This document shows positions 1 to 25,606 of a stretch of DNA of 29,189 nt, piece by piece. The translations under genes and the position numbers were made by a program. The DNA is from a virus: the UHGV virus genome UHGV-0245401; one strand, 5' to 3'. Each line of letters opens with the position of its first letter. Positions within the stretch are counted from its first letter, which is position 1. The notes below the pieces were generated by a model. It worked only from the letters and a program-made list of their open reading frames with translations. It did not search any database and was not told the origin of the DNA.

Positions 1-365
1 CCTACCAGTTTCTCGGTGTGGGTGAGGAAAACATGACGCTTGCCGGCGTGCTTTATCCCGAACTGACCGGCGGGAAGCTGACGATGACCACGCTCAGGCT
101 GATGGCAGAGGAAGGCCGGGCGTGGCCGTTGCTGGATGGCACCGGCATGATTTACGGCATGTATGTCATCAGCAGGGTGAGTGAAACAGGGAGTATTTTC
201 TTTGCAGACGGCACACCCAGAAAAATTGATTTTACGCTGTCGCTCACCCGCGTTGATGAATCACTGGCCGCGCTTTATGGCGATATCGGTAAACAGGCGG
301 AATCGCTCATCGGTAAAGCTGGCAGTATGGCGACCAGATTCACGGGTATGACGGGGGCGGGATAA
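1..365 (+). CDS. U: Tail protein gpU, C-terminal part; the gene is split by the window boundary and continues from 29075-29189
   Basis: Reading frame is open from position 1 and ends at TAA 363-365. Translation (…YQFLGVGEENMTLAGVLYPELTGGKLTMTTLRLMAEEGRAWPLLDG…) matches P2 gpU from memory. Joining window end to start gives exactly 480 nt (159 aa plus stop). Confidence 0.85.
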   Translation, partial: YQFLGVGEENMTLAGVLYPELTGGKLTMTTLRLMAEEGRAWPLLDGTGMIYGMYVISRVSETGSIFFADGTPRKIDFTLSLTRVDESLAALYGDIGKQAESLIGKAGSMATRFTGMTGAG

Positions 366-1528
366 TGCTGGATGCACTGACATTTGATGCAGGCAGTACG
401 CTGACGCCGGATTACATGCTGATGCTCGACAGCAGGGATATTACCGGCAATATCAGCGACCGTCTGATGAGCATGACCCTGACGGATAACCGGGGCTTTG
501 AGGCTGACCAGCTTGATATTGAACTGAACGATGCCGACGGGCAGGTCGGGCTGCCGGTTCGTGGCGCTGTCCTGACGGTGTATATCGGCTGGAAAGGTTT
601 TGCCCTGGTATGCAAAGGGAAATTTACCGTTGATGAGGTTGAACACCGGGGCGCACCGGATGTGGTCACCATCCGCGCCCGGAGTGCAGATTTTCGCGGG
701 ACGCTCAATTCCCGCCGTGAAGGCTCATGGCATGACACCACGCTCGGTGCGATTGTTGAGGCGATAGCCTCCCGTAATAAGCTGGAAGCCAGTGTCGCGC
801 CGTCACTGGCAGGAATTAAAATCCCGCACATCGACCAGTCGCAGGAGTCTGATGCGAAATTCCTGACCCGTCTTGCAGAACGCAACGGCGGTGAGGTGTC
901 GGTAAAAATGGGAAAACTGTTGTTTCTCAAAGCGGGGCAGGGGGTGACGGCCAGCGGTAAAAAAATCCCGCAGATTACCATCACCCGCAGCGACGGCGAC
1001 CGCCATCATTTTGCGATTGCTGACCGTGGAGCCTATACCGGCGTAACGGCAAAGTGGTTACACACCAAAGACCCGAAGCCACAAAAGCAGAAGGTAAAAC
1101 TGAAACGCAAAAAGAAAGAGAAACACCTGCGCGCACTGGAGCACCCGAAAGCGAAACCAGTCACGCAGAAGAAAGCGCCAAAAGTACCGGAAGCGCGCGA
1201 AGGTGAATACATGGCAGGTGAGGCTGACAACGTTTTTGCCCTGACCACGGTATATGCCACGAAAGCGCAGGCCATGCGCGCCGCTCAGGCGAAGTGGGAT
1301 AAGCTGCAACGGGGTGTTGCGGAATTCTCCATCAGTCTGGCTACTGGTCGGGCAGATATTTATACGGAAACGCCGGTCAAAGTGTCAGGCTTTAAGCGCG
1401 TCATAGACGAGCAGGACTGGACAATCACTAAGGTGACACATTTTCTGAATAATAGCGGCTTCACGACGTCCTTAGAGCTTGAGGTCAGGCTTTCTGATGT
1501 GGAGTACGAAACAGAAGATGATGAATGA
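365..1528 (+). CDS. D: Tail protein gpD (387 aa)
   Basis: 387-aa ORF whose ATG overlaps the U stop (ATAATG). Same length and position as P2 D, between U and ogr. Contains a lysine-rich tract. Confidence 0.9.
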   Translation: MLDALTFDAGSTLTPDYMLMLDSRDITGNISDRLMSMTLTDNRGFEADQLDIELNDADGQVGLPVRGAVLTVYIGWKGFALVCKGKFTVDEVEHRGAPDVVTIRARSADFRGTLNSRREGSWHDTTLGAIVEAIASRNKLEASVAPSLAGIKIPHIDQSQESDAKFLTRLAERNGGEVSVKMGKLLFLKAGQGVTASGKKIPQITITRSDGDRHHFAIADRGAYTGVTAKWLHTKDPKPQKQKVKLKRKKKEKHLRALEHPKAKPVTQKKAPKVPEAREGEYMAGEADNVFALTTVYATKAQAMRAAQAKWDKLQRGVAEFSISLATGRADIYTETPVKVSGFKRVIDEQDWTITKVTHFLNNSGFTTSLELEVRLSDVEYETEDDE

Positions 1529-1610
1529 TGTTTTTTATTTTATCTGTTTGTTTTATAAGGATAAATTAACTAAAATGGCACCATCAACAAAACCGGAAGA
1601 GGTGCTCGCG

Positions 1611-1829
1611 ATGTTTCATTGTCCTTTATGCCAGCATGCCGCACATGCGCGTACAAGTCGCTATATCACTGACACGACAAAAGAGCGTTATCACCAGTGC
1701 CAGAACGTGAATTGCAGCGCCACGTTCATCACTTATGAGTCGGTACAGCGATACATCGTGAAGCCGGGAGAAGTCCACGCCGTAAAACCGCACCCGTTGC
1801 CGTCAGGGCAGCAAATTATGTGGATGTAA
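1611..1829 (+). CDS. ogr: Ogr, zinc-finger activator of late transcription (72 aa)
   Basis: MFHCPLCQHAAHARTSRYITDTTKERYHQCQNVNCSATF… with a C-x2-C…C-x4-C zinc-finger pattern and the 72-aa length of P2 Ogr. The longer upstream ATG at 1479 was rejected. Confidence 0.9.
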   Translation: MFHCPLCQHAAHARTSRYITDTTKERYHQCQNVNCSATFITYESVQRYIVKPGEVHAVKPHPLPSGQQIMWM

Positions 1830-1840
1830 TTACAAACAGA

Positions 1841-1870
1841 AAGCCCCTCAGTCGAGGGGCTTTCTGTTTT
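1841..1870 (+). terminator. Intrinsic terminator after ogr
   Basis: GC-rich hairpin GCCCCTC-agtc-GAGGGGC followed by TTTCTGTTTT. Confidence 0.7.
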
Positions 1871-1969
1871 GGGGAATATTCTTCATTAAAAGTAGTGGAT
1901 CACGTTTAATAAACTATGTTTATCATATACTTAAAAGTCAATCTTTAAAGTTGGACAGGTTGGTGGAAA

Positions 1970-2611
1970 ATGGAAAAAGTTATAATTGAGCTTGATAATC
2001 GTTGGGAGTTAGCTGATTTCGCGGTCTTAACGAAAGAGTATTTGCAGCTATATGGTTTTTTTTATGGCCTAAAAGGAGGATCAAGAGGATATTCAACAAT
2101 GCCTTGGGAGGGTGGGCACAGTGTGGTGAACTTTTTTAGAGGGGCTTACAGTGCGACTCCACCAGATTTACGTCCTGTAGTGAAAAAAATTCAGTATGCC
2201 TCTCCTGGCTTTATTGAATTGTCTGCTCTTATTGATATCTCTTGGCAGATTGCTGAGTTAGTTACTGCTGTTGGTGGAAGTATTCTGGCTGCCAACAAAG
2301 TTTACGATCAGGTGATGCGTACATATCGACAAAGAGAATGGGCAAAGTTGAAATCAGAGAAGCTGCGTATACAGAATCAAATTAAAGAGATTGAACTTGT
2401 TTCTGACGCAGTTAAATCACTTGAATCTGTGATGGCACTTAGTGAAGAACAACGTAAAAACTTGGTTCAACTATCGGGGGCAGATGAACTGGTTCAGTTA
2501 AAGATACTTTTGGCTGTTTACCGACGGTTATCTCCTCTTGTTGAGTTGCAAAACAGCGGGAAAGCTAATTTTTCTGCTGGGAAAAATAAAAATTTAAAAG
2601 CGTCCGATTAA
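1970..2611 (+). CDS. Hypothetical 213-aa protein of unknown function, an AT-rich moron between ogr and attP
   Basis: Uninterrupted 213-codon ORF in a visibly AT-rich island. GGTGG Shine-Dalgarno-like motif about 7 nt upstream of the ATG, with TATACT (-10-like) at 1926-1931. The C-terminal half is rich in K/E/L/Q heptad-like sequence and there is a hydrophobic stretch around aa 80-110. No family recognised. Confidence 0.65.
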   Translation: MEKVIIELDNRWELADFAVLTKEYLQLYGFFYGLKGGSRGYSTMPWEGGHSVVNFFRGAYSATPPDLRPVVKKIQYASPGFIELSALIDISWQIAELVTAVGGSILAANKVYDQVMRTYRQREWAKLKSEKLRIQNQIKEIELVSDAVKSLESVMALSEEQRKNLVQLSGADELVQLKILLAVYRRLSPLVELQNSGKANFSAGKNKNLKASD

Positions 2612-2619
2612 ACGGACGC

Positions 2620-2856
2620 TGAACGATGTGGACGCTATGTGGACAGCGGTTGACATAAATCCATTTATATCATCAGGTTAGGTGCTTTTTTGTGACACCA
2701 TCCCTGTCTTCCCCCACATGATGTGGGGGTTTTTTTTATCAATTACTTACATGCAATCAAAAGTAAAAACAGGTACTTATCGAAAGCTGTAAGGGTTTGG
2801 AGCGGTTTCAAAATTTCTTGAGTGTGGACACTATGTGGACACTCAGAGGGGGAAAT
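2620..2856. other. Putative attP region with integrase arm-type repeats (TGTGGAC-N4-TGTGGACA at 2627-2645 and 2823-2841)
   Basis: Two tandem TGTGGACA-type direct repeats flank about 170 bp directly downstream of the int 3' end. They resemble the arm-type Int sites I recall for P2, but the P2 core sequence itself is not present. Confidence 0.5.
2709..2738 (+). terminator. Hairpin plus T-run (CCCCCACAT-g-ATGTGGGGG-TTTTTTTT); terminator-like, possibly part of the att core
   Basis: Perfect 9-bp inverted repeat followed by eight T residues on the + strand. Confidence 0.5.
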
Positions 2857-6365: not shown

Positions 6366-8631
6366 AGCCTCCGGGCGTTTTGTCCCTCCGTCAGCATTTG
6401 CCGCAGGCACCGGTAAGGCGTTTACCGGTGCTTATGCATGGAACGCGCCACGCGAGGCTGTCGGGCGCGAAAGACCTCTTACACGTGACGAGATGCGTCA
6501 GGTGCAAGGTGTTTTATCCACGATTAACCGCCTGCCTTACTTTTTGCGCTCGCTGTTTACTTCACGCTATGACTACATCCGGCGCAATAAAAGCCCGGTG
6601 CACGGGTTTTATTTCCTCACATCCACTTTTCAGCGTCGTTTATGGCCGCGCATTGAGCGTGTGAATCAGCGCCATGAAATGAACACCGACGCGTCGATGC
6701 TGTTTCTGGCAGAGCGTGACCACTATGCGCGCCTGCCGGGAATGAATGACAAGGAGCTGAAAAAGTTTGCCGCCCGTATCTCATCGCAGCTTTTCATGAT
6801 GTATGAGGAACTCAGCGATGCCTGGGTGGATGCGCATGGCGAGAAAGAATCGCTGTTTACGGATGAGGCGCAGGCTCACCTCTATGGTCATGTTGCTGGC
6901 GCTGCACGTGCTTTCAATATTTCCCCTCTCTACTGGAAAAAATACCGTAAAGGACAGATGACCACGAGGCAGGCATATTCTGCCATTGCCCGTCTGTTTA
7001 ACGATGAGTGGTGGACTCATCAGCTTAAAGGCCAGCGTATGCGCTGGCATGAAGCGTTACTGATAGCTGTCGGGGAGGTCAATAAAGACCGTTCTCCTTA
7101 TGCCAGTAAACATGCCATTCGTGATGTGCGTGCGCGCCGCCAGGCAAATCTGGAATTTCTTAAATCGTGTGACCTTGAAAACAGGGAAACCGGCGAGCGC
7201 ATCGACCTTATCAGTAAGGTGATGGGCAGTATTTCTAATCCTGAAATTCGCCGGATGGAGCTGATGAACACCATTGCCGGTATTGAGCGTTACGCCGCCG
7301 CAGAGGGTGATGTGGGGATGTTTATCACGCTGACCGCGCCGTCAAAGTATCACCCGGCACGTCAGGTCGGAAAAGGCGAAAGTAAAACCGTCCAGCTTAA
7401 TCACGGCTGGAATGATGAGGCATTTAATCCAAAGGATGCGCAGCGATATCTCTGCCGTATCTGGAGCCTGATGCGCACGGCATTCAAGGATAATGACTTA
7501 CAGGTCTACGGTTTGCGTGTCGTCGAGCCACACCACGACGGAACGCCGCACTGGCATATGATGCTTTTTTGTAATCCACGCCAGCGTAACCAGATTATTG
7601 AAATCATGCGTCGCTATGCGCTCAAAGAGGATGGCGACGAAAGAGGAGCCGCGCGAAACCGTTTTCAGGCAAAACACCTTAACCGGGGCGGTGCTGCGGG
7701 ATATATCGCGAAATACATCTCAAAAAACATCGACGGCTATGCACTGGATGGTCAGCTCGATAATGATACCGGTAGGCCGCTGAAAGATACTGCGGCGGCT
7801 GTTACCGCATGGGCATCAACGTGGCGCATCCCGCAATTTAAAACGGTTGGCCTGCCGACAATGGGAGCTTACCGTGAGCTACGTAAATTGCCTCGCGGCG
7901 TCAGCATTGCTGATGAATTTGACGAACGCGTGGAGGCTGCACGCGCCGCCGCAGACAGTGGCGATTTTGCGCTGTATATCAGCGCGCAGGGCGGGGCAAA
8001 TGTCCCGCGCGATTGTCAGACTGTCAGGGTCGCCCGTAGCCCGTCGGATGACGTTAACGAATACGAGGAAGAAGTCGAGAGAGTGGTCGGCATTTACGCG
8101 CCGCATCTCGGCGCGCGTCATATTCATATCACCAGAACGACGGACTGGCGCATTGTGCCGAAAGTTCCGGTCGTTGAGCCTTTGACTTTAAAAAGCGGCA
8201 TCGCCGCGCCTCGGAGTCCTGTCAATAACTGTGGAAAGCTCACCGGTGGTGATACTTCGTTACCGGCTCCCACACCTTCTGAGCACGCCGCAGCAGTGCT
8301 TAATCTGGTAGATGACGGTGTTATCGAATGGAGTGACCCGGAGGTCGTGATGGCGCTCAGGGGCGCATTAAAACACGGACTGAGAACACCAAATCGTCAG
8401 CAAAGAAACGGAAGCCCGTTAAAACCACATGAAATTGCACCATCGGCCAGACTGACCCGGTCGGAAAGAATGCAAATTACCCGTATCCGCGTTGACCTCG
8501 CTCAGAACGGTATCAGGCCGCAACGATGGGAGCTTGAGGCGCTGGCGCGTGGCGCGACCGTAAATTATGACGGGAAAAAATTCACGTATCCGGTTGCTGA
8601 TGAGTGGCCGGGGTTCTCGTTACCCATTTGA
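6355..8631 (+). CDS. A: Replication initiator A, rolling-circle nickase
   Basis: Large ORF with the HUH-type motif …GTPHWHMMLF… and the active-site tyrosine motif …AGYIAKYISKNIDG…. Start taken at MAVKASGRF (6355) rather than the upstream in-frame ATG at 6313. Confidence 0.9.
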   Translation: MAVKASGRFVPPSAFAAGTGKAFTGAYAWNAPREAVGRERPLTRDEMRQVQGVLSTINRLPYFLRSLFTSRYDYIRRNKSPVHGFYFLTSTFQRRLWPRIERVNQRHEMNTDASMLFLAERDHYARLPGMNDKELKKFAARISSQLFMMYEELSDAWVDAHGEKESLFTDEAQAHLYGHVAGAARAFNISPLYWKKYRKGQMTTRQAYSAIARLFNDEWWTHQLKGQRMRWHEALLIAVGEVNKDRSPYASKHAIRDVRARRQANLEFLKSCDLENRETGERIDLISKVMGSISNPEIRRMELMNTIAGIERYAAAEGDVGMFITLTAPSKYHPARQVGKGESKTVQLNHGWNDEAFNPKDAQRYLCRIWSLMRTAFKDNDLQVYGLRVVEPHHDGTPHWHMMLFCNPRQRNQIIEIMRRYALKEDGDERGAARNRFQAKHLNRGGAAGYIAKYISKNIDGYALDGQLDNDTGRPLKDTAAAVTAWASTWRIPQFKTVGLPTMGAYRELRKLPRGVSIADEFDERVEAARAAADSGDFALYISAQGGANVPRDCQTVRVARSPSDDVNEYEEEVERVVGIYAPHLGARHIHITRTTDWRIVPKVPVVEPLTLKSGIAAPRSPVNNCGKLTGGDTSLPAPTPSEHAAAVLNLVDDGVIEWSDPEVVMALRGALKHGLRTPNRQQRNGSPLKPHEIAPSARLTRSERMQITRIRVDLAQNGIRPQRWELEALARGATVNYDGKKFTYPVADEWPGFSLPI

Positions 8632-8846
8632 GTAAAAACACAACGTGATTTGATATGGCATTGAATGGCTTATGCGGAGCAGTTATGGGGCAGCAGAAGG
8701 TCAATAGCATGCTGAATTAGAAGGCTAAATGCTATTGAGTGACTAGCATGTCGGTAAGGACAGCCGTTTGATCCGGGTCATAAAAGGCCATCCATTTAGT
8801 CTAATAAAATCATTGCGGGTAACCTTATGTCGACGCATAATTCGTC

Positions 8847-8861
8847 TTGAGCGAAGTCTTG
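8847..8861 (+). repeat. 15-bp direct repeat TTGAGCGAAGTCTTG, copy 1 of 2
   Basis: Exact 15-mer also found at 9111-9125. Confidence 0.6.
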
Positions 8862-8890
8862 TCAGTCTTTCATCGTATTGATGATGGGCG

Positions 8891-8922
8891 CAAAAAAACC
8901 ACCCTGGCAGGTGGTTTTTTTG
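8891..8922. terminator. Bidirectional intrinsic terminator (A7-hairpin-T7)
   Basis: AAAAAAACCACCCTGGCAGGTGGTTTTTTT: a GC stem flanked by an A-run and a T-run, able to terminate gene A on + and the small ORF on -. Confidence 0.65.
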
Positions 8923-8933
8923 TTTGAAGCATA

Positions 8934-9047
8934 TTAAAGCATAATGCTGACATTGATATTACTGACGTTTACTGACAAACCACTCGGACTACCGTTTGGA
9001 TAGCCAAAGAGGGCCAGAACGAGAATGCAGTAATAGCATTTCTTCAT
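8934..9047 (-). CDS. Small ORF, 37 aa (MKKCYYCILVLALFGYPNGSPSGLSVNVSNINVSIML), with a hydrophobic signal-peptide-like N-terminus
   Basis: Consensus AGGAGG Shine-Dalgarno 4 nt upstream of the ATG on the minus strand, with the bidirectional terminator directly downstream. Sits in the old/tin accessory position. No homolog recognised. Confidence 0.35.
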   Translation of the reverse strand: MKKCYYCILVLALFGYPNGSPSGLSVNVSNINVSIML

Positions 9048-9110
9048 ATTGCCTCCTGTAAGTAGAGGGCAACTTCCACCGGTATATGCGCTTCTTAGGT
9101 GGAATGACTT

Positions 9111-9125
9111 TTGAGCGAAGTCTTG
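9111..9125 (+). repeat. 15-bp direct repeat TTGAGCGAAGTCTTG, copy 2 of 2
   Basis: Exact copy of 8847-8861. Embedded in GACTT-ttgagcg-AAGTC, which has inverted symmetry. Lies about 65-80 nt upstream of the small ORF start. Confidence 0.6.
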
Positions 9126-9525
9126 CCCTGAAATAATGCTCTGTTTAAACGCAAAGTGATTTGGCATATCACCGAACAGAGAGCCGGAAAAACACAACAT
9201 ATAGTATGTCGTTGTTTCTAGGCATACATTCTATGTTGTGTAACAAGGGCTTTGCATTAAACATGTTTGAGATTTTATTGATGTAGCTCAAAGTAAAAAA
9301 CAGAGACTACGGATGATAAGGTCTTGAAAGCAATGTAAATTTTTTAAAGTTGCCAATTGCTTAAAAATGTACAGTTGCGGTATGGCGTACTTAAAAAGCT
9401 ATGCATGCAACAAGTGAATGTTTTTGCATGCGTTGGGGATGTCCGTTCAGGCGGCGTGCGGTCAGGACTGGTGCGGATCCATAGTATCTATGCAACTGCA
9501 TTAAAACCGCCCCGTGAAGCGGGCG

Positions 9526-9544
9526 GGCGAGGCGGGGAAAGCAC
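9526..9544. other. cos: cos, the 19-nt cohesive end sequence GGCGAGGCGGGGAAAGCAC
   Basis: Exact match to the P2 cohesive-end sequence as I recall it. Located just outside the portal gene Q, as in P2. Confidence 0.7.
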
Positions 9545-9685
9545 TGCGCGCTGGCGGTGGTGCTGATTTTATTTTTTCAGCGTCTGAGCGCGTCGTGATG
9601 GCGTTTAGATTGTTCGCCGGGGCGTTGGTGTGTCTGCGGGCTGTTTTGTGCGGTGGTGAGCGTGTGAGGGCGTGATGGCGGGGTG

Positions 9686-9710
9686 TAAAAAAGCCGCCCG
9701 CAGGCGGCGA
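9686..9710 (-). terminator. Terminator-like hairpin after Q on the minus strand
   Basis: On the minus strand, GCCGCC-tgcgg-GCGGC followed by TTTTTTA immediately after the Q stop. Confidence 0.5.
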
Positions 9711-9713
9711 TGT

Positions 9714-20853: not shown

Positions 20854-21457
20854 TTCGCGACTGCTGCCGACCGGCTCATCACTGCTTGAAGTTGCCGCCG
20901 CAAAAGCCTGTGCGGAAATTGAAAAAACGCCGGTCAGTATTCGTGAGCTGTGGAACCCGGACACCTGCCCGGCAAATCTGCTGCCGTGGCTGGCGTGGTC
21001 ATTTTCGGTTGACCGCTGGGATGATAAATGGCCGGAAGCGACAAAACGCGCTGTTATCCGCGATGCGTATTTCATTCACTGCCATAAGGGCACTATAGGC
21101 GCAATCCGGCGTGTGGTGGAGCCGCTCGGCTATCTGATTGAGGTGAGGGAGTGGTGGCAGCTCAACGAGGAGCCGGGGACGTTCCGTATCGTTGTTGGCG
21201 TGCTTGAGCAGGGTATTACCGAAGAAATGTATCAGGAGCTGGAGCGCCTAGTTGCTGATGCAAAACCGGCAAGCCGCCATCTGACGGGACTGGCTATCAG
21301 TTTAAGTACAACCGGCAACATTTTTGCCGGTGCGGGATGCTATCACGGTGACGCCCTGACGGTTTATCCCTACACCCCGGAGGCCATTATTGTCGGAGGG
21401 GATTATTTCCCGGCCTCGGCCATTCATTTAATTGATAACCTGAGAGTAAACGCATGA
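20846..21457 (+). CDS. I: Baseplate protein gpI
   Basis: [22 protein letters not shown]…, overlapping the J stop. Confidence 0.88.
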
Positions 21458-22614
21458 CAGTGAAATACTACGCCATTCTGACTAATCAGGGCGCAGCACG
21501 GCTGGCTAACGCGACGATGCTCGGCAGTAAGCTGAATCTGACGCAAATGGCCGTTGGTGATGCGAATGGTGTCTTGCCGACACCAGACCCGGCACAGACA
21601 AAACTGATTAACCAGAAACGCATCGCGCCGCTGAATCTTCTGAGTGTTGACCCGAACAACCAGAGCCAGATTATTGCGGAGCAAATCATCCCTGAGAACG
21701 AGGGCGGATTCTGGATCCGTGAGATTGGGCTTTATGATGATGAAGGCGTACTCATTGCGGTGGCGAACTGCCCGGAAACGTACAAACCGCAGTTGCAGGA
21801 AGGCAGTGGTCGTACCCAGACTATCCGCATGATTCTGGTTGTCACGAATACCGAAGCTATCACGCTGAAAATCGACCCGTCGGTGGTACTGGCGACCCGT
21901 AAATACGTGGATGATGAAGTCCTGGAATTAAGGCTGTATGTGGATGACCAGATGAGAAACCACATTGCCGCACAGGATCCTCATACCCAGTATGCGCAGA
22001 AACATAATCCGACATTTACCGGAGAACCAAAAGCGCCGACGCCTGCCGCAGGAAATAACACCACGCGGATTGCGACCACTGCGTTTGTTCAGGCCGCTAT
22101 TACCGCTCTGATTAACGGTGCGCCAGCCACGCTGGACACACTGAAAGAAATTGCCGCAGCCATTAACAATGACCCGAAATTCAGTACCACCATTAACAAT
22201 GCGCTGTCAGGTAAGCAGCCACTGGATGAGACGCTGACTCATTTGAGTGGAAAGGATGTAGCTGGTCTTCTCGCATACCTTGGTTTGGGAGAAGCGGCAA
22301 AACGGAATGTGGGAACAGGGGAAAATCAGATACCTGATATGTCATCATATGCATCAGGTTCAGGCTGGCGAAAAATGCCAGATGGTTCAATTGAACAGTG
22401 GGGACGAATTAGTTTTCCTGGTGAACACGGGCCTGTATCCGCCAATGTTTCATTCCCGATTCCATTTACACAGACACCGGGCATTGTAATTGTGTGCGAT
22501 GGTGGTTTCGGGGGCGGGAATATGTGGGGGGCGACCAACTGGAGCACTACCGGCTTCATAGCTCACTGCAATTATGGTCTTGAAGGTGGTGCGTTTTTCG
22601 CTAAGGGCTGGTAA
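21454..22614 (+). CDS. H: Tail fibre protein gpH (386 aa): conserved N-terminal part plus a variable C-terminal tip encoded inside the invertible segment
   Basis: N-terminus [42 protein letters not shown]… is the conserved P2-family H domain. The C-terminal ~115 aa lie beyond the crossover site at 22268-22293. Confidence 0.88.
22268..22293 (+). other. hix/gix-like 26-bp inversion crossover site inside H (TTCTCGCATACC-TT-GGTTTGGGAGAA)
   Basis: Two 12-bp half-sites with 10/12 dyad symmetry around a central TT. Its 3' 14 bp are identical to the inverted partner at 24093-24118. Confidence 0.65.
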
Positions 22615-23057
22615 TGATGAAATATCTGTACGTAAACAACCTGGCATATCCTTACGAACTTCAGTCTCTTTATGTTGAAAAAGGTGAATGGCCTGAAGAA
22701 AAAGGTGTTGATATAGACGAAGTAATTTTCAGGGAATATTTCTATGACACACCACCAGAAGGAAAATACAGATGTGTTGGAGAAGATGGACTGCCTGCAT
22801 GGGCAGATATTCCTCCACCAACACGTGAAGAACAAATTGCATCAGCCGAAACTAAAAAGCAGCAATTGATTAATCAGGCCAACGATTATATGAACAGTAG
22901 ACAATGGGTTGGTAAAGCGGCTATTGGTCGTCTGAAAGGTGAGGAACTGGCGCAATATAATTTGTGGCTGGATTATCTGGACGCACTGGAGCTGGTCGAT
23001 ACTTCCAGTGCACCAGATATTGAATGGCCTACTCCTCCGGCAGTTCAGGCCAGATGA
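22614..23057 (+). CDS. G: Tail fibre assembly chaperone (Tfa, P2 G-like), paired with the currently expressed fibre tip
   Basis: 147 aa with a C-terminal Tfa signature …LWLDYLDALELVDTSSAPDIEWPTPP…. AT-rich 5' half. Confidence 0.85.
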   Translation: MMKYLYVNNLAYPYELQSLYVEKGEWPEEKGVDIDEVIFREYFYDTPPEGKYRCVGEDGLPAWADIPPPTREEQIASAETKKQQLINQANDYMNSRQWVGKAAIGRLKGEELAQYNLWLDYLDALELVDTSSAPDIEWPTPPAVQAR

Positions 23058-23640
23058 CATCCGGCGCGGTGCTGGTATCTGTTGCCGTCACCGCGTCAAT
23101 GTAATCCAGCACCGTGTTAAGTCGGCTGGTTTCTGCCTGCGTCAGATTCCGTCCGGCCCGTAATTTCAGTTGAATCAGACTGATGGAAGCCATTGCAGTA
23201 TCAATCAGCGACTGGCGTTGTGCTTCTGCTGCATCTACTGCGGCGCTATGCTGTGCATCGGTATCCGTCACCCATTTCTCACCATCCCATTTATCGTATG
23301 GTGTTAACGGGGCGATAGTGGTTGTATTATCAGGGTAATCACCCGGAGCTGTGATTTCTTTTGATTCTCCTGTTTCGGTGCTAAAGACGATTTCACCGCG
23401 ATGGTCTGGCACATATTCCCATGAGTTAAAATCTGCAGAACGGCAGATTGCATAACCAGCCTTATGTGTAACTGGTGCATCTAAACAAGAACATGCCGGG
23501 ATACCGACGCCAACCGTAAGATATTCAGTTGATGTGGAAATATATTCCCGCGTTTCTCCGTTGTAGTTGTAAACGGTAATGAAGCCAGCCTCTGTGGCAA
23601 ATCCGTTTTCATCCAAAGTGATTTTTTTTGTGGTCATCAT
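23029..23640 (-). CDS. Alternative tail fibre assembly chaperone (Tfa') on the opposite strand inside the invertible segment
   Basis: 203 aa with a C-terminal Tfa signature …LNTVLDYIDAVTATDTSTAPDVIWPELPEE. Convergent with G and overlapping it by 29 bp. Confidence 0.8.
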   Translation of the reverse strand: MMTTKKITLDENGFATEAGFITVYNYNGETREYISTSTEYLTVGVGIPACSCLDAPVTHKAGYAICRSADFNSWEYVPDHRGEIVFSTETGESKEITAPGDYPDNTTTIAPLTPYDKWDGEKWVTDTDAQHSAAVDAAEAQRQSLIDTAMASISLIQLKLRAGRNLTQAETSRLNTVLDYIDAVTATDTSTAPDVIWPELPEE

Positions 23641-24146
23641 GCTGCCCTTACAATGTAGTTAAATGCAATGTTACGTGGCCTTGTTTCTGCTGATGTTCTT
23701 GCACTCCTGGATAAATCAAGTGTCACACCATAGTAACTAAATGCATTACCAGTTGATGGAGCGGCATATTTAACCCCAGAACTAGAACCAACATTAAAAA
23801 CTCCAGATGCTGAGGAAGCTGACCCCATAGTGTTATCAATCAGAGAACCCGTAACATTTTGCATAGCGTCAAGTTGTTCGCTTAATAAAGCGCGTCCACT
23901 ATCAACATCACGCCCGTCATCCCAGCCACGAATAAATTCACCTCGTAAATCAGGCAATTTATTTGTCGGATAAGCCTTTGCCAGTTCCGGGTATTCTTCA
24001 GCAGAAAAAAACGCACCGTTGCATTTCAGCCAGCCTGTTGGCGGAGTGGTGGAAGGCCACGGAACAGGCACGCCAACGGGTAATGCCGAACCTTCTCCCA
24101 AACCAACGTTTAAGAAAATGCAGAGATTACGGCTAACTGGCATCAT
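23637..24146 (-). CDS. Alternative tail-fibre C-terminal tip (Hv'), promoterless in this orientation
   Basis: …LPDLRGEFIRGWDDGRDVDSGRALL…RPRNIAFNYIVRAA resembles variable tail-fibre tips of Mu/P1-type invertible systems. Its 5' end carries the partner crossover site in the same frame (…GLGE…) as in H. Confidence 0.7.
   Translation of the reverse strand: MMPVSRNLCIFLNVGLGEGSALPVGVPVPWPSTTPPTGWLKCNGAFFSAEEYPELAKAYPTNKLPDLRGEFIRGWDDGRDVDSGRALLSEQLDAMQNVTGSLIDNTMGSASSASGVFNVGSSSGVKYAAPSTGNAFSYYGVTLDLSRSARTSAETRPRNIAFNYIVRAA
24093..24118 (-). other. hix/gix-like inversion crossover site, inverted partner of 22268-22293
   Basis: The minus strand reads TTTTCTTAAACG-TT-GGTTTGGGAGAA. The right half is identical to the site in H and the left half is a degenerate copy. 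Confidence 0.6.
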
Positions 24147-24173
24147 CCCCGGTTTTTATTCAGGGGATCCATC

Positions 24174-24356
24174 ATGCTTATTGGCTATGTCCGCGTGTCA
24201 ACAAATGACCAGAATACGGAATTGCAGCGTAACGCGCTGGAGTGCGCAGGATGTGAGCTGATTTTTGATATTGGCCTGTCCACGCTCTATAAAAAATTCC
24301 CCTCATCAGCGACAAAGAATAAATTGTGTCATCCCTTAGCCAACCGGGACAAATAG
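24174..24356 (+). pseudogene. Remnant of a Hin/Gin/Pin-family serine DNA invertase with an in-frame internal deletion, 60 aa remaining
   Basis: N-terminus MLIGYVRVSTNDQNTELQRNALECAGCELIF matches the invertase N-terminus including the catalytic serine, and is fused directly to a C-terminal …LSTLYKK… segment. About 130 aa of catalytic and dimerisation domain are missing. Confidence 0.75.
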
Positions 24357-24415
24357 CCTGACATCTCCGGCACAACTGAAAATATCACTCACCCATTAAC
24401 CACGGAGTTAAACGG

Positions 24416-25606
24416 ATGAGTGACTATCATCACGGCGTGCAGGTGCTGGAGATTAACGACGGCACCCGTGTCATTTCCACCGTATCCACTGCCATTGTTG
24501 GCATGGTCTGCACGGCCAGCGATGCGGATGCGGAAACCTTCCCCCTCAATAAACCGGTGCTGATTACCAATGTGCAGAGCGCAATTGCAAAGGCCGGTAA
24601 AAAAGGCACGCTGGCGGCATCGTTGCAGGCTATCGCCGACCAGTCAAAACCGGTCACCGTTGTTGTGCGCGTGGAGGACGGCACCGGCGACGACGAAGAA
24701 ACGAAACTTGCGCAGACCGTTTCCAATATCATCGGCACCACTGACGAAAACGGTCAGTACACCGGACTGAAAGCCCTGCTGGCGGCAGAGTCGGTAACCG
24801 GTGTTAAACCGCGTATTCTTGGTGTGCCGGGACTGGATACCAAAGAGGTGGCTGTAGCACTAGCATCCGTCTGTCAGAAGCTGCGCGCTTTCGGGTATAT
24901 CAGCGCATGGGGCTGTAAGACCATTTCCGAGGTGAAAGCCTACCGCCAGAATTTCAGCCAGCGTGAGCTGATGGTCATCTGGCCGGATTTCCTCGCATGG
25001 GATACGGTCACCAGTACCACCGCCACCGCGTATGCCACCGCTCGTGCGCTGGGGCTGCGCGCTAAAATCGACCAGGAGCAGGGCTGGCATAAAACGCTGT
25101 CCAACGTCGGGGTGAACGGTGTTACCGGCATCAGCGCATCTGTATTCTGGGATTTGCAGGAGTCCGGCACCGATGCTGACCTGCTTAACGAGTCAGGCGT
25201 CACTACGCTGATTCGCCGCGACGGTTTCCGCTTCTGGGGTAACCGTACCTGCTCTGATGACCCACTGTTTCTCTTTGAAAACTACACCCGTACCGCGCAG
25301 GTGCTGGCCGACACGATAGCTGAGGCGCACATGTGGGCGGTGGACAAGCCCATCACCGCAACGCTGATTCGCGACATCGTTGACGGCATCAATGCCAAAT
25401 TCCGTGAGCTGAAAACAAACGGCTATATCGTGGATGGCTCATGCTGGTTCAGCGAAGAATCCAACGATGCGGAAACCCTCAAGGCCGGAAAACTGTATAT
25501 CGACTACGACTATACACCGGTGCCTCCTCTCGAAAACCTGACCCTGCGCCAGCGTATTACCGATAAATACCTGGCGAATCTGGTCACCTCGGTTAACAGC
25601 AATTAA
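24416..25606 (+). CDS. FI: Tail sheath protein gpFI (396 aa)
   Basis: 396 aa, MSDYHHGVQVLEINDGTRVISTVSTAIVGMV…, matching P2 FI. Confidence 0.93.
   Translation: MSDYHHGVQVLEINDGTRVISTVSTAIVGMVCTASDADAETFPLNKPVLITNVQSAIAKAGKKGTLAASLQAIADQSKPVTVVVRVEDGTGDDEETKLAQTVSNIIGTTDENGQYTGLKALLAAESVTGVKPRILGVPGLDTKEVAVALASVCQKLRAFGYISAWGCKTISEVKAYRQNFSQRELMVIWPDFLAWDTVTSTTATAYATARALGLRAKIDQEQGWHKTLSNVGVNGVTGISASVFWDLQESGTDADLLNESGVTTLIRRDGFRFWGNRTCSDDPLFLFENYTRTAQVLADTIAEAHMWAVDKPITATLIRDIVDGINAKFRELKTNGYIVDGSCWFSEESNDAETLKAGKLYIDYDYTPVPPLENLTLRQRITDKYLANLVTSVNSN

Follow-up and report, generated by a model that had tools for sequence, protein, structure and literature searches.

Whether a phage can go on exchanging the tips of its tail fibre once the recombinase gene beside the switch has been destroyed is the question raised by one locus of the UHGV virus genome UHGV-0245401, the whole 29,189-bp stretch of which is hereafter termed the window. 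The locus comprises the distal part of the tail-fibre gene H of a P2-like phage, two pairs of fibre tips and chaperones on opposite strands, the two inverted crossover sites that enclose them, and a remnant of a serine invertase gene. An earlier note on this DNA had described a Mu G-segment-like invertible cassette, and overlooked the invertase remnant (24174-24356). The overall interpretation developed here, which is advanced with considerable confidence, is that the cassette represents a Din-family invertible tail-fibre segment of the e14 P-segment type, located in the P2-like G-to-FI slot, orphaned by a deletion within its own invertase gene, and most likely flipped in trans.

Crossover sites and limits of the invertible segment

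The top inverted repeat returned by a repeat finder consisted of two 27-nt arms (22268-22294 and 24092-24118) that are 81% complementary. Within these arms lie the left crossover site, a 26-mer of the pix/gix type at 22268-22293 on the plus strand inside H (TTCTCGCATACC-TT-GGTTTGGGAGAA), and the right crossover site, a 26-mer at 24093-24118 that reads TTTTCTTAAACG-TT-GGTTTGGGAGAA on the minus strand. With both written in the same sense, the 26-mers agree at 21 of 26 positions; each forms an imperfect dyad of 12-bp half-sites around the central TT (half-site matches of 10/12 and 8/12). The window contains exactly two copies of the 14-nt core TTGGTTTGGGAGAA, one on each strand, against an expected 0.03 copies, and two matches were obtained in none of 100 shuffled sequences; the pair of inverted dyad sites with an identical 14-bp part recognised in the earlier note was in this way confirmed. 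The central dinucleotide is TT in both sites, in inverted orientation, as the Din family requires for religation after a rotation of 180 degrees.

Comparison with established sites gave 23 of 26 matches between the left site and the left pix site of e14, 25 of 26 between the respective right sites, and 21 of 26 between the left site and P1 cixR. The left site was unchanged in EA2, NCTC9040, LD27-1, KTa005, MNCRE44 and X14-3. It falls at codons ~272-280 of H, so that ~275 amino acids (aa) at the conserved N-terminus remain constant and outside the segment, as had been proposed. The invertible segment itself, defined as the DNA between the central dinucleotides of both sites, extends from 22281 to 24105. 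A consensus scan of the phage for a third crossover site, such as a shufflon would contain, returned only the same two sites.

One further candidate for a third recombination site, an 18-nt inverted repeat (22967-22984/23093-23110; 83% complementary), was rejected. It straddles the point at which the convergent chaperone genes overlap, and arises because a conserved C-terminal motif (LDYLDA/LDYIDA) is encoded on opposite strands.

Inversion between near-identical genomes

A query constructed from the predicted flipped junction matched Escherichia coli MNCRE44 across its full length of 890 nt at 100% identity. Alignment of the window with the corresponding MNCRE44 prophage revealed one single-nucleotide polymorphism (SNP; window 4220) together with inversion of 22280-24109, and nothing else. 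Identity changes strand within the 15-bp core shared by the two sites, while the outer half-sites remain with their flanks. Swapping the segment in silico yielded an open 431-aa H identical to the H protein annotated in MNCRE44, and the in-frame fusion on inversion that had been predicted from the core, which translates as GLGE in both reading frames, therefore held good. Further pairs of cassettes in opposite orientations were recorded in LD27-1 versus Br_178 and in EA2 versus X14-3, and in relatives with intact invertases the two sites recur, with these cassettes found either way round. The segment consequently occurs in both orientations across genomes, as is characteristic of the Din family, and the concern raised earlier that only one orientation might be found was dispelled, not least by a genome one SNP away.

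An inversion of this kind might in principle have arisen other than by site-specific recombination, whether by general homologous recombination at short inverted repeats or as an error of assembly. Assemblers can mis-orient segments that lie between inverted repeats, and one IMG/VR contig (UViG_2671180841_000012), otherwise 99.99% identical to the window, lacks window 24107-24198 and has NN in its place (contig 8198-8215), a break located exactly at the right site. However, the identical stretch is only 15 bp long, a length at which RecA recombination is inefficient and an assembler would not be misled; the MNCRE44 chromosome is finished, and the fused H in it is a clean open reading frame (ORF); and the breakpoints map to the core of sites for which proven pix and cix sites provide a match. 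A non-site-specific or artefactual origin is consequently regarded as extremely improbable.

The break in the IMG/VR contig may, for its part, reflect mixed orientations of the segment in the sequenced population.

A different kind of exchange may be represented in NCTC10973, the backbone of which is 99.9% identical to the window on the left of the cassette and 98% identical on the right. Its segment is flipped and only ~86% identical in content, and because the high-identity flanks stop exactly at both sites (window 22294 and 24092), the alignment suggests that whole cassettes are exchanged between phages at, or right beside, the crossover sites.

The invertase gene remnant

The plus-strand feature at 24174-24356 is a remnant of a Pin/Gin/Cin-type serine invertase gene, retaining 60 of 197 codons and matching the Pfam Resolvase domain at residues 3-35 only. 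It encodes residues 1-31, MLIGYVRVSTNDQ included, plus the final 29 residues, and comparison with the complete 594-bp versions in EA2 and NCTC9040 places a 411-bp in-frame gap between them. The deletion junction (24257-24268, plus strand) is the sole surviving copy of a 12-bp direct repeat, GCTGATTTTTGA, of which the intact genes contain two copies 411 bp apart; the deletion is in frame because both copies share one reading frame, each encoding LIF.

An intact 197-aa invertase gene is present in close relatives. Its product is 87% identical to PinE of e14 and 79% identical to P1 Cin, and matches the Mu Gin structures 3UJ3 and 4M6F over residues 1-182 (E~1e-94). When judged against those structures, ~70% of the protein has gone from the remnant, which lacks the dimerisation helix and the greater part of both the catalytic and the DNA-binding domains. 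The adjacent active serine invertase by which Din-family elements are recognised (~185-197 aa, with a catalytic serine near residue 9-10 and a C-terminal helix-turn-helix (HTH)) is thus lacking here, and tblastn detected no other invertase in the phage. PADLOC returned no match to the remnant, and none of six proteins submitted to NCBIfam reached a curated cut-off, the intact invertase giving sub-threshold serine-recombinase matches only. As predicted from these data, the element is without the capacity to flip itself, and would be a substrate of the Din family rather than an autonomous member of it.

A function for the 60-aa in-frame remnant in its own right, under selection as, for example, a modulator of resident invertases or a site-binding peptide, can be entertained insofar as the deletion retains the start codon, the catalytic-serine motif and the last HTH helix, and the allele occurs on closely related P2-like backbones with different cassettes. 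Set against this, the in-frame state follows automatically from repeats that share the LIF reading frame, ~70% of the protein is absent, and the allele is rare, being found in ~3 of 5,426 complete E. coli genomes. A functional remnant is on balance most unlikely.

What the deletion spares includes a region homologous to a recombinational (Fis) enhancer at 24192-24263 on the plus strand, corresponding to nt 19-90 of the invertase gene, the interval at which the Cin enhancer is annotated in the GenBank record of P1 (nt 19-90 of cin). Identity across this stretch is 57/72 with P1 and 69/72 with the intact EA2 gene; since the remnant matches the intact gene through nt 95, the enhancer-homologous stretch has been fully retained, and Fis-like G-N13-C 15-mers begin at 24195 and 24244. 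Also spared is the late promoter pF of the FI operon, part of the P2 backbone, which occupies 24319-24392 on the plus strand from activator-binding site to transcription start (coordinates transferred from the P2 annotation by alignment). The last ~35 nt of the invertase ORF consist of P2-backbone sequence containing the pF activator site and transcription start, which accounts for the extended C-terminus of these invertases and sets the right-hand limit of the cassette near 24320.

Candidate sources of invertase activity

Action of an invertase in trans is mechanistically plausible. In e14, a segment with this core (TTGGTTTGGGAGAAGG) on either side serves as substrate for PinE, PinQ and PinR, enzymes some of which belong to other prophages (PMC12529663). 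Older work cited in that paper describes inversion of the Salmonella H segment by Fin, from the Fels-2 prophage, and of two targets by PinE, namely the Mu G segment and the flagellar phase-determinant region of Salmonella.

Invertase-like loci in MNCRE44 were counted with a chimeric query, comparing a unique anchor alone with the anchor plus the deleted 411-nt Pin core. The anchor alone matched two places on the MNCRE44 chromosome, NZ_CP010876.1, and addition of the Pin core raised this to four, indicating two Pin-core-like loci elsewhere; across all E. coli genomes the median number of places per genome rose from 1 to 3 on the same addition. Inclusion of pinQ in the query gave no further places in MNCRE44, and PinQ-like genes appear for this reason to be absent from that chromosome.

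The MNCRE44 prophage carries the same deleted invertase gene as the window. Both the deletion allele and the orientation of the window are shared by LD27-1, by the IMG/VR contig described above and by one metagenome contig; MNCRE44 and NCTC10973 have the deletion allele and a segment flipped relative to the window. The exact deletion junction gave no match in a one-genome-per-species collection, and where it does occur it accompanies different cassettes on closely related P2-like backbones.

It could be argued from this distribution that inversion ended when the invertase was lost, the segment then being a frozen relic whose two orientations among carriers stem from recurrent deletion or from recombination of the deleted allele. 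The 12-bp direct repeats at the deletion would favour recurrent slippage or illegitimate recombination, and the presence of the allele beside different cassettes in LD27-1 and NCTC10973 indicates that recombination around it does occur. The window and the MNCRE44 prophage nevertheless differ by one SNP in 29,189 bp, have opposite orientations and share the same deletion; over so brief an interval, a single flip by a resident invertase is more probable than the same deletion arising twice, and candidate invertase genes exist in MNCRE44, cross-reactivity of such enzymes being documented (PMC12529663). Cessation of inversion with loss of the invertase is therefore held to be unlikely.

Inversion in trans after the deletion remains the most economical reading of the aligned genomes, because one deletion followed by a flip is simpler than two identical deletions one SNP apart, and the enzyme responsible would most likely be a Pin-type invertase of another resident prophage or prophages. 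Several considerations weigh against this interpretation. The evidence of flipping is comparative, drawn from different genomes rather than from two orientations in one culture, and the same 12-bp repeats could allow the deletion to arise again independently. The two Pin-core-like loci, which could be pseudogenes, were counted in MNCRE44 rather than in the window's own host. The enhancer is a putative one, assigned from homology to the P1 annotation together with two loose Fis-like motifs, and any change of host range resulting from the tip swap is argued by analogy.

The mechanism to which the sites, reading frames, protein homologies, deletion and opposed orientations in near-identical genomes point would proceed as follows. 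A serine invertase would pair both 26-bp sites and cut at the central TT, presumably with assistance from Fis at the enhancer region within the 5' part of the invertase gene; rotation and religation would then exchange which tip and chaperone are joined to the constant 275-aa H stem, to be transcribed from the late V-operon promoter, such that the phage could produce either of two receptor-binding tips. Its own invertase having been destroyed by the 411-bp deletion between 12-bp direct repeats, with the sites, enhancer region and pF surviving, the segment would persist as an orphan substrate flipped by the Pin-type invertases of other resident prophages.

That loss of the invertase is in addition a tolerated or even favoured state, in which the choice of tip has been handed to the Pin-type invertases of co-resident prophages, is a more tentative proposal, and on present evidence a doubtful one, although the deletion takes out exactly the catalytic core, leaves the two sites, the enhancer region and the pF that overlaps the gene untouched, and occurs with different cassettes in both orientations. 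Were it correct, host-range switching would depend on which prophages are resident in the host, and perhaps also on the expression of invertases on infection, as reported for PinQ. Irrespective of that proposal, two genomes separated by one SNP and one flip provide a natural example in which use of an invertible receptor-tip cassette would have outlasted its own recombinase, and in annotation a pseudogene labelled 'recombinase, incomplete' beside tail-fibre genes does not imply a fixed fibre.

Alternative tail-fibre tips and their chaperones

The complete H ORF (21454-22614, plus strand) has an N-terminal Pfam Phage_tail_fib domain and a Gp53-like_C domain. Its constant part, ~275 codons (21454-22280), includes the Phage_tail_fib match (aa 1-150, E=2e-62), is 42% identical to the N-terminus of P2 H, and is collinear and identical in MNCRE44. 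The variable tip currently expressed (22281-22614) has a gp53-like C-terminal domain (Gp53-like_C, aa 307-374), and is silent on the opposite strand in MNCRE44 and X14-3 with 100% aa identity. It is followed on the plus strand by its partner chaperone, a G/Tfa protein of 147 aa (22614-23057; Caudo_TAP, E=3e-33), the C-terminal part of which is 62% identical to e14 TfaP.

The minus strand carries a second chaperone of 203 aa (23029-23640; Caudo_TAP, E=1e-32), 87% identical to e14 TfaE, and, as its partner, the silent alternative tip (23637-24105; Pfam Collar, E=8e-15), which is 58% identical to e14 StfE, comes into frame with H after inversion, and is fused to H in MNCRE44, where the entire segment is reverse-complemented. 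Pfam support for all four ORFs substantiated the two tip and chaperone pairs on opposite strands, and the close homologues found for those on the minus strand answered the objection that they might be spurious. The architecture is in consequence that of a fibre switch, with a site inside the fibre ORF, a constant N-terminus in frame with alternative tips, and a separate chaperone for each tip within the segment. Because the tips belong to unrelated folds (Gp53-like_C and Collar), they are likely to differ in receptor specificity, and the silent tip would represent a potential alternative host-range determinant in host-range prediction, or in the engineering of P2-like phages and tailocins.

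The alternative tip had also been described as promoterless. A promoter scan of the minus strand upstream of it did return no promoter-like site, although scan counts were no higher than those from shuffled sequences, so that this part of the description gained little strength.

A minus-strand ATG at 24146 (24107-24146), situated beyond the segment in the DNA that separates the right site from the invertase gene, shares its frame with the tip that is silent in a given orientation. For this reason PGAP treats the silent tip as a free-standing gene in genomes such as MNCRE44 and EA2; inspection by eye found no convincing ribosome-binding site ahead of the ATG, and the free-standing gene is probably an annotation artefact.

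Relationship to known inversion systems

Of the description offered in the earlier note, the assignment to the invertible-segment type was sustained, the choice of Mu G as closest relative was not. By homology the nearest relative is the Pin/P-segment system of e14, as judged from the crossover sites and from the resemblance to PinE and TfaE already detailed. The e14 P segment of E. coli K-12 (stfP-tfaP/tfaE-stfE/pinE) has the same gene layout as the window, namely a constant fibre, a site, a tip with its chaperone, a convergent chaperone with its tip, a second site, and an invertase gene pointing away from the segment; the 14-bp core is identical and the segment is of similar size (~1.8 kb). 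By way of contrast, e14 is a defective lambdoid remnant and the window a complete P2-like myophage, the expressed gp53-like tip of the window is unrelated to the StfP tip, and the window invertase is internally deleted.

A figure of 1797 is common to both, as the number of nt between the repeat arms of the window and as the segment size in bp given in the e14 paper. Identity of the two segments on that basis was rejected as coincidence, the core-to-core distances being 1799 and 1801 nt and the contents only partly homologous.

With the Mu G/Gin and P1 C/Cin systems the cassette shares the Sc/Sv architecture, a crossover site within the fibre gene, a chaperone (U/U') within the segment, 26-bp dyad sites with a central 2-bp crossover, and an enhancer (here putative) in the 5' end of the invertase gene. 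In P1 the annotated crossover lies inside the central dinucleotide of each cix site, which is likewise TT/AA. However, the G and C segments are 3-4.2 kb long with far longer variable parts, both phages encode active invertases, and in P1 the 3' end of cin adjoins cixL.

An invertible fibre cassette with its invertase has already been published for this P2-like slot. Phase-variable inversion was shown by sequencing in P2-like prophages of enteropathogenic E. coli (EPEC) E2348/69, including a simple two-variant locus (PMC4272514), and the Z/fun hotspot of P2-like phages frequently contains a DNA invertase together with inversions of the genes beside it (bioRxiv 10.1101/2024.10.15.618418). Deposited phages such as pro483 have a DNA invertase annotated in the same position. 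In these P2-like loci (EPEC, Fels-2 Fin and the Z/fun survey) any invertase gene that has been described is intact, whereas the window has a 60-codon remnant; the orphaned and apparently still flipped state is the only, and modest, twist, and apart from it the locus exemplifies textbook Din-family biology and raises no new question.

Canonical P2 (H-G-fun(Z)-FI) has the same backbone order, and the cassette of the window ends where P2 pF begins. P2 differs in having one fixed H of 669 aa, no second tip, second site or invertase, and fun(Z) filling the slot on the opposite strand.

A lone minus-strand 26-mer, TTCCTGTAAACCGAGATATTCGATAA, was observed in the H gene of P2 (NC_001895, 13857-13882). 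Its score against the Din-site consensus is 15 of 20, and it sits at codons homologous to those of the left site of the window (YLGL; YLGLQE). It would seem to be a crossover site left as a relic in P2, which has no invertase.

The phage genome and its P2-like backbone

The window is a complete phage genome, circularly permuted relative to the MNCRE44 prophage, which is itself complete at 29,189 bp and flanked by cpxP and fieF. Window 1-2740 corresponds to the right end of that prophage and 2694 onward to its left end, the two being joined at a 47-bp att core (GACACCATCCCTGTCTTCCCCCACATGATGTGGGGGTTTTTTTTATC, 2694-2740), an arrangement which indicates that the window represents the excised or circular form of the cpxP/fieF prophage of MNCRE44.

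The tail module follows the P2-like (Peduovirus) order V-W-J-I-H-G ... FI-FII-E-T-U-D with the late promoter pF upstream of FI, as established from Pfam matches (Tail_P2_I and sheath domains), ORF order, the MNCRE44 annotation, and alignment to P2 pF and FI. DNA identity with P2 is 87% in gene I and 96% across the pF promoter and FI start, the latter located at 24416. Alignment and the P2 annotation agreed in placing the cassette in the position used by fun(Z) in P2, between the V-operon terminator and pF, and thereby upheld its proposed location in the Z/fun slot.

Elsewhere in the window, ~1.08 kb of low-GC DNA (38-44%; 8632-9713) occupies the P2 old/tin hotspot between the gpA-like replication gene and the portal gene. 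This region contains no gene annotated in MNCRE44, no ORF longer than 88 aa, and no Rfam, Pfam or PADLOC match, an Rfam scan of the whole window having likewise found nothing. Inspection by eye revealed a 37-codon ORF on its minus strand (MKKCYYCILVLALFGYPNGSPSGLSVNVSNINVSIML) with an AGGAGG ribosome-binding site and a terminator-like hairpin 3' of it. The whole region was matched, at a coverage of at least 80%, in 101 complete E. coli genomes, and every E. coli genome has one place that matches some portion of it.

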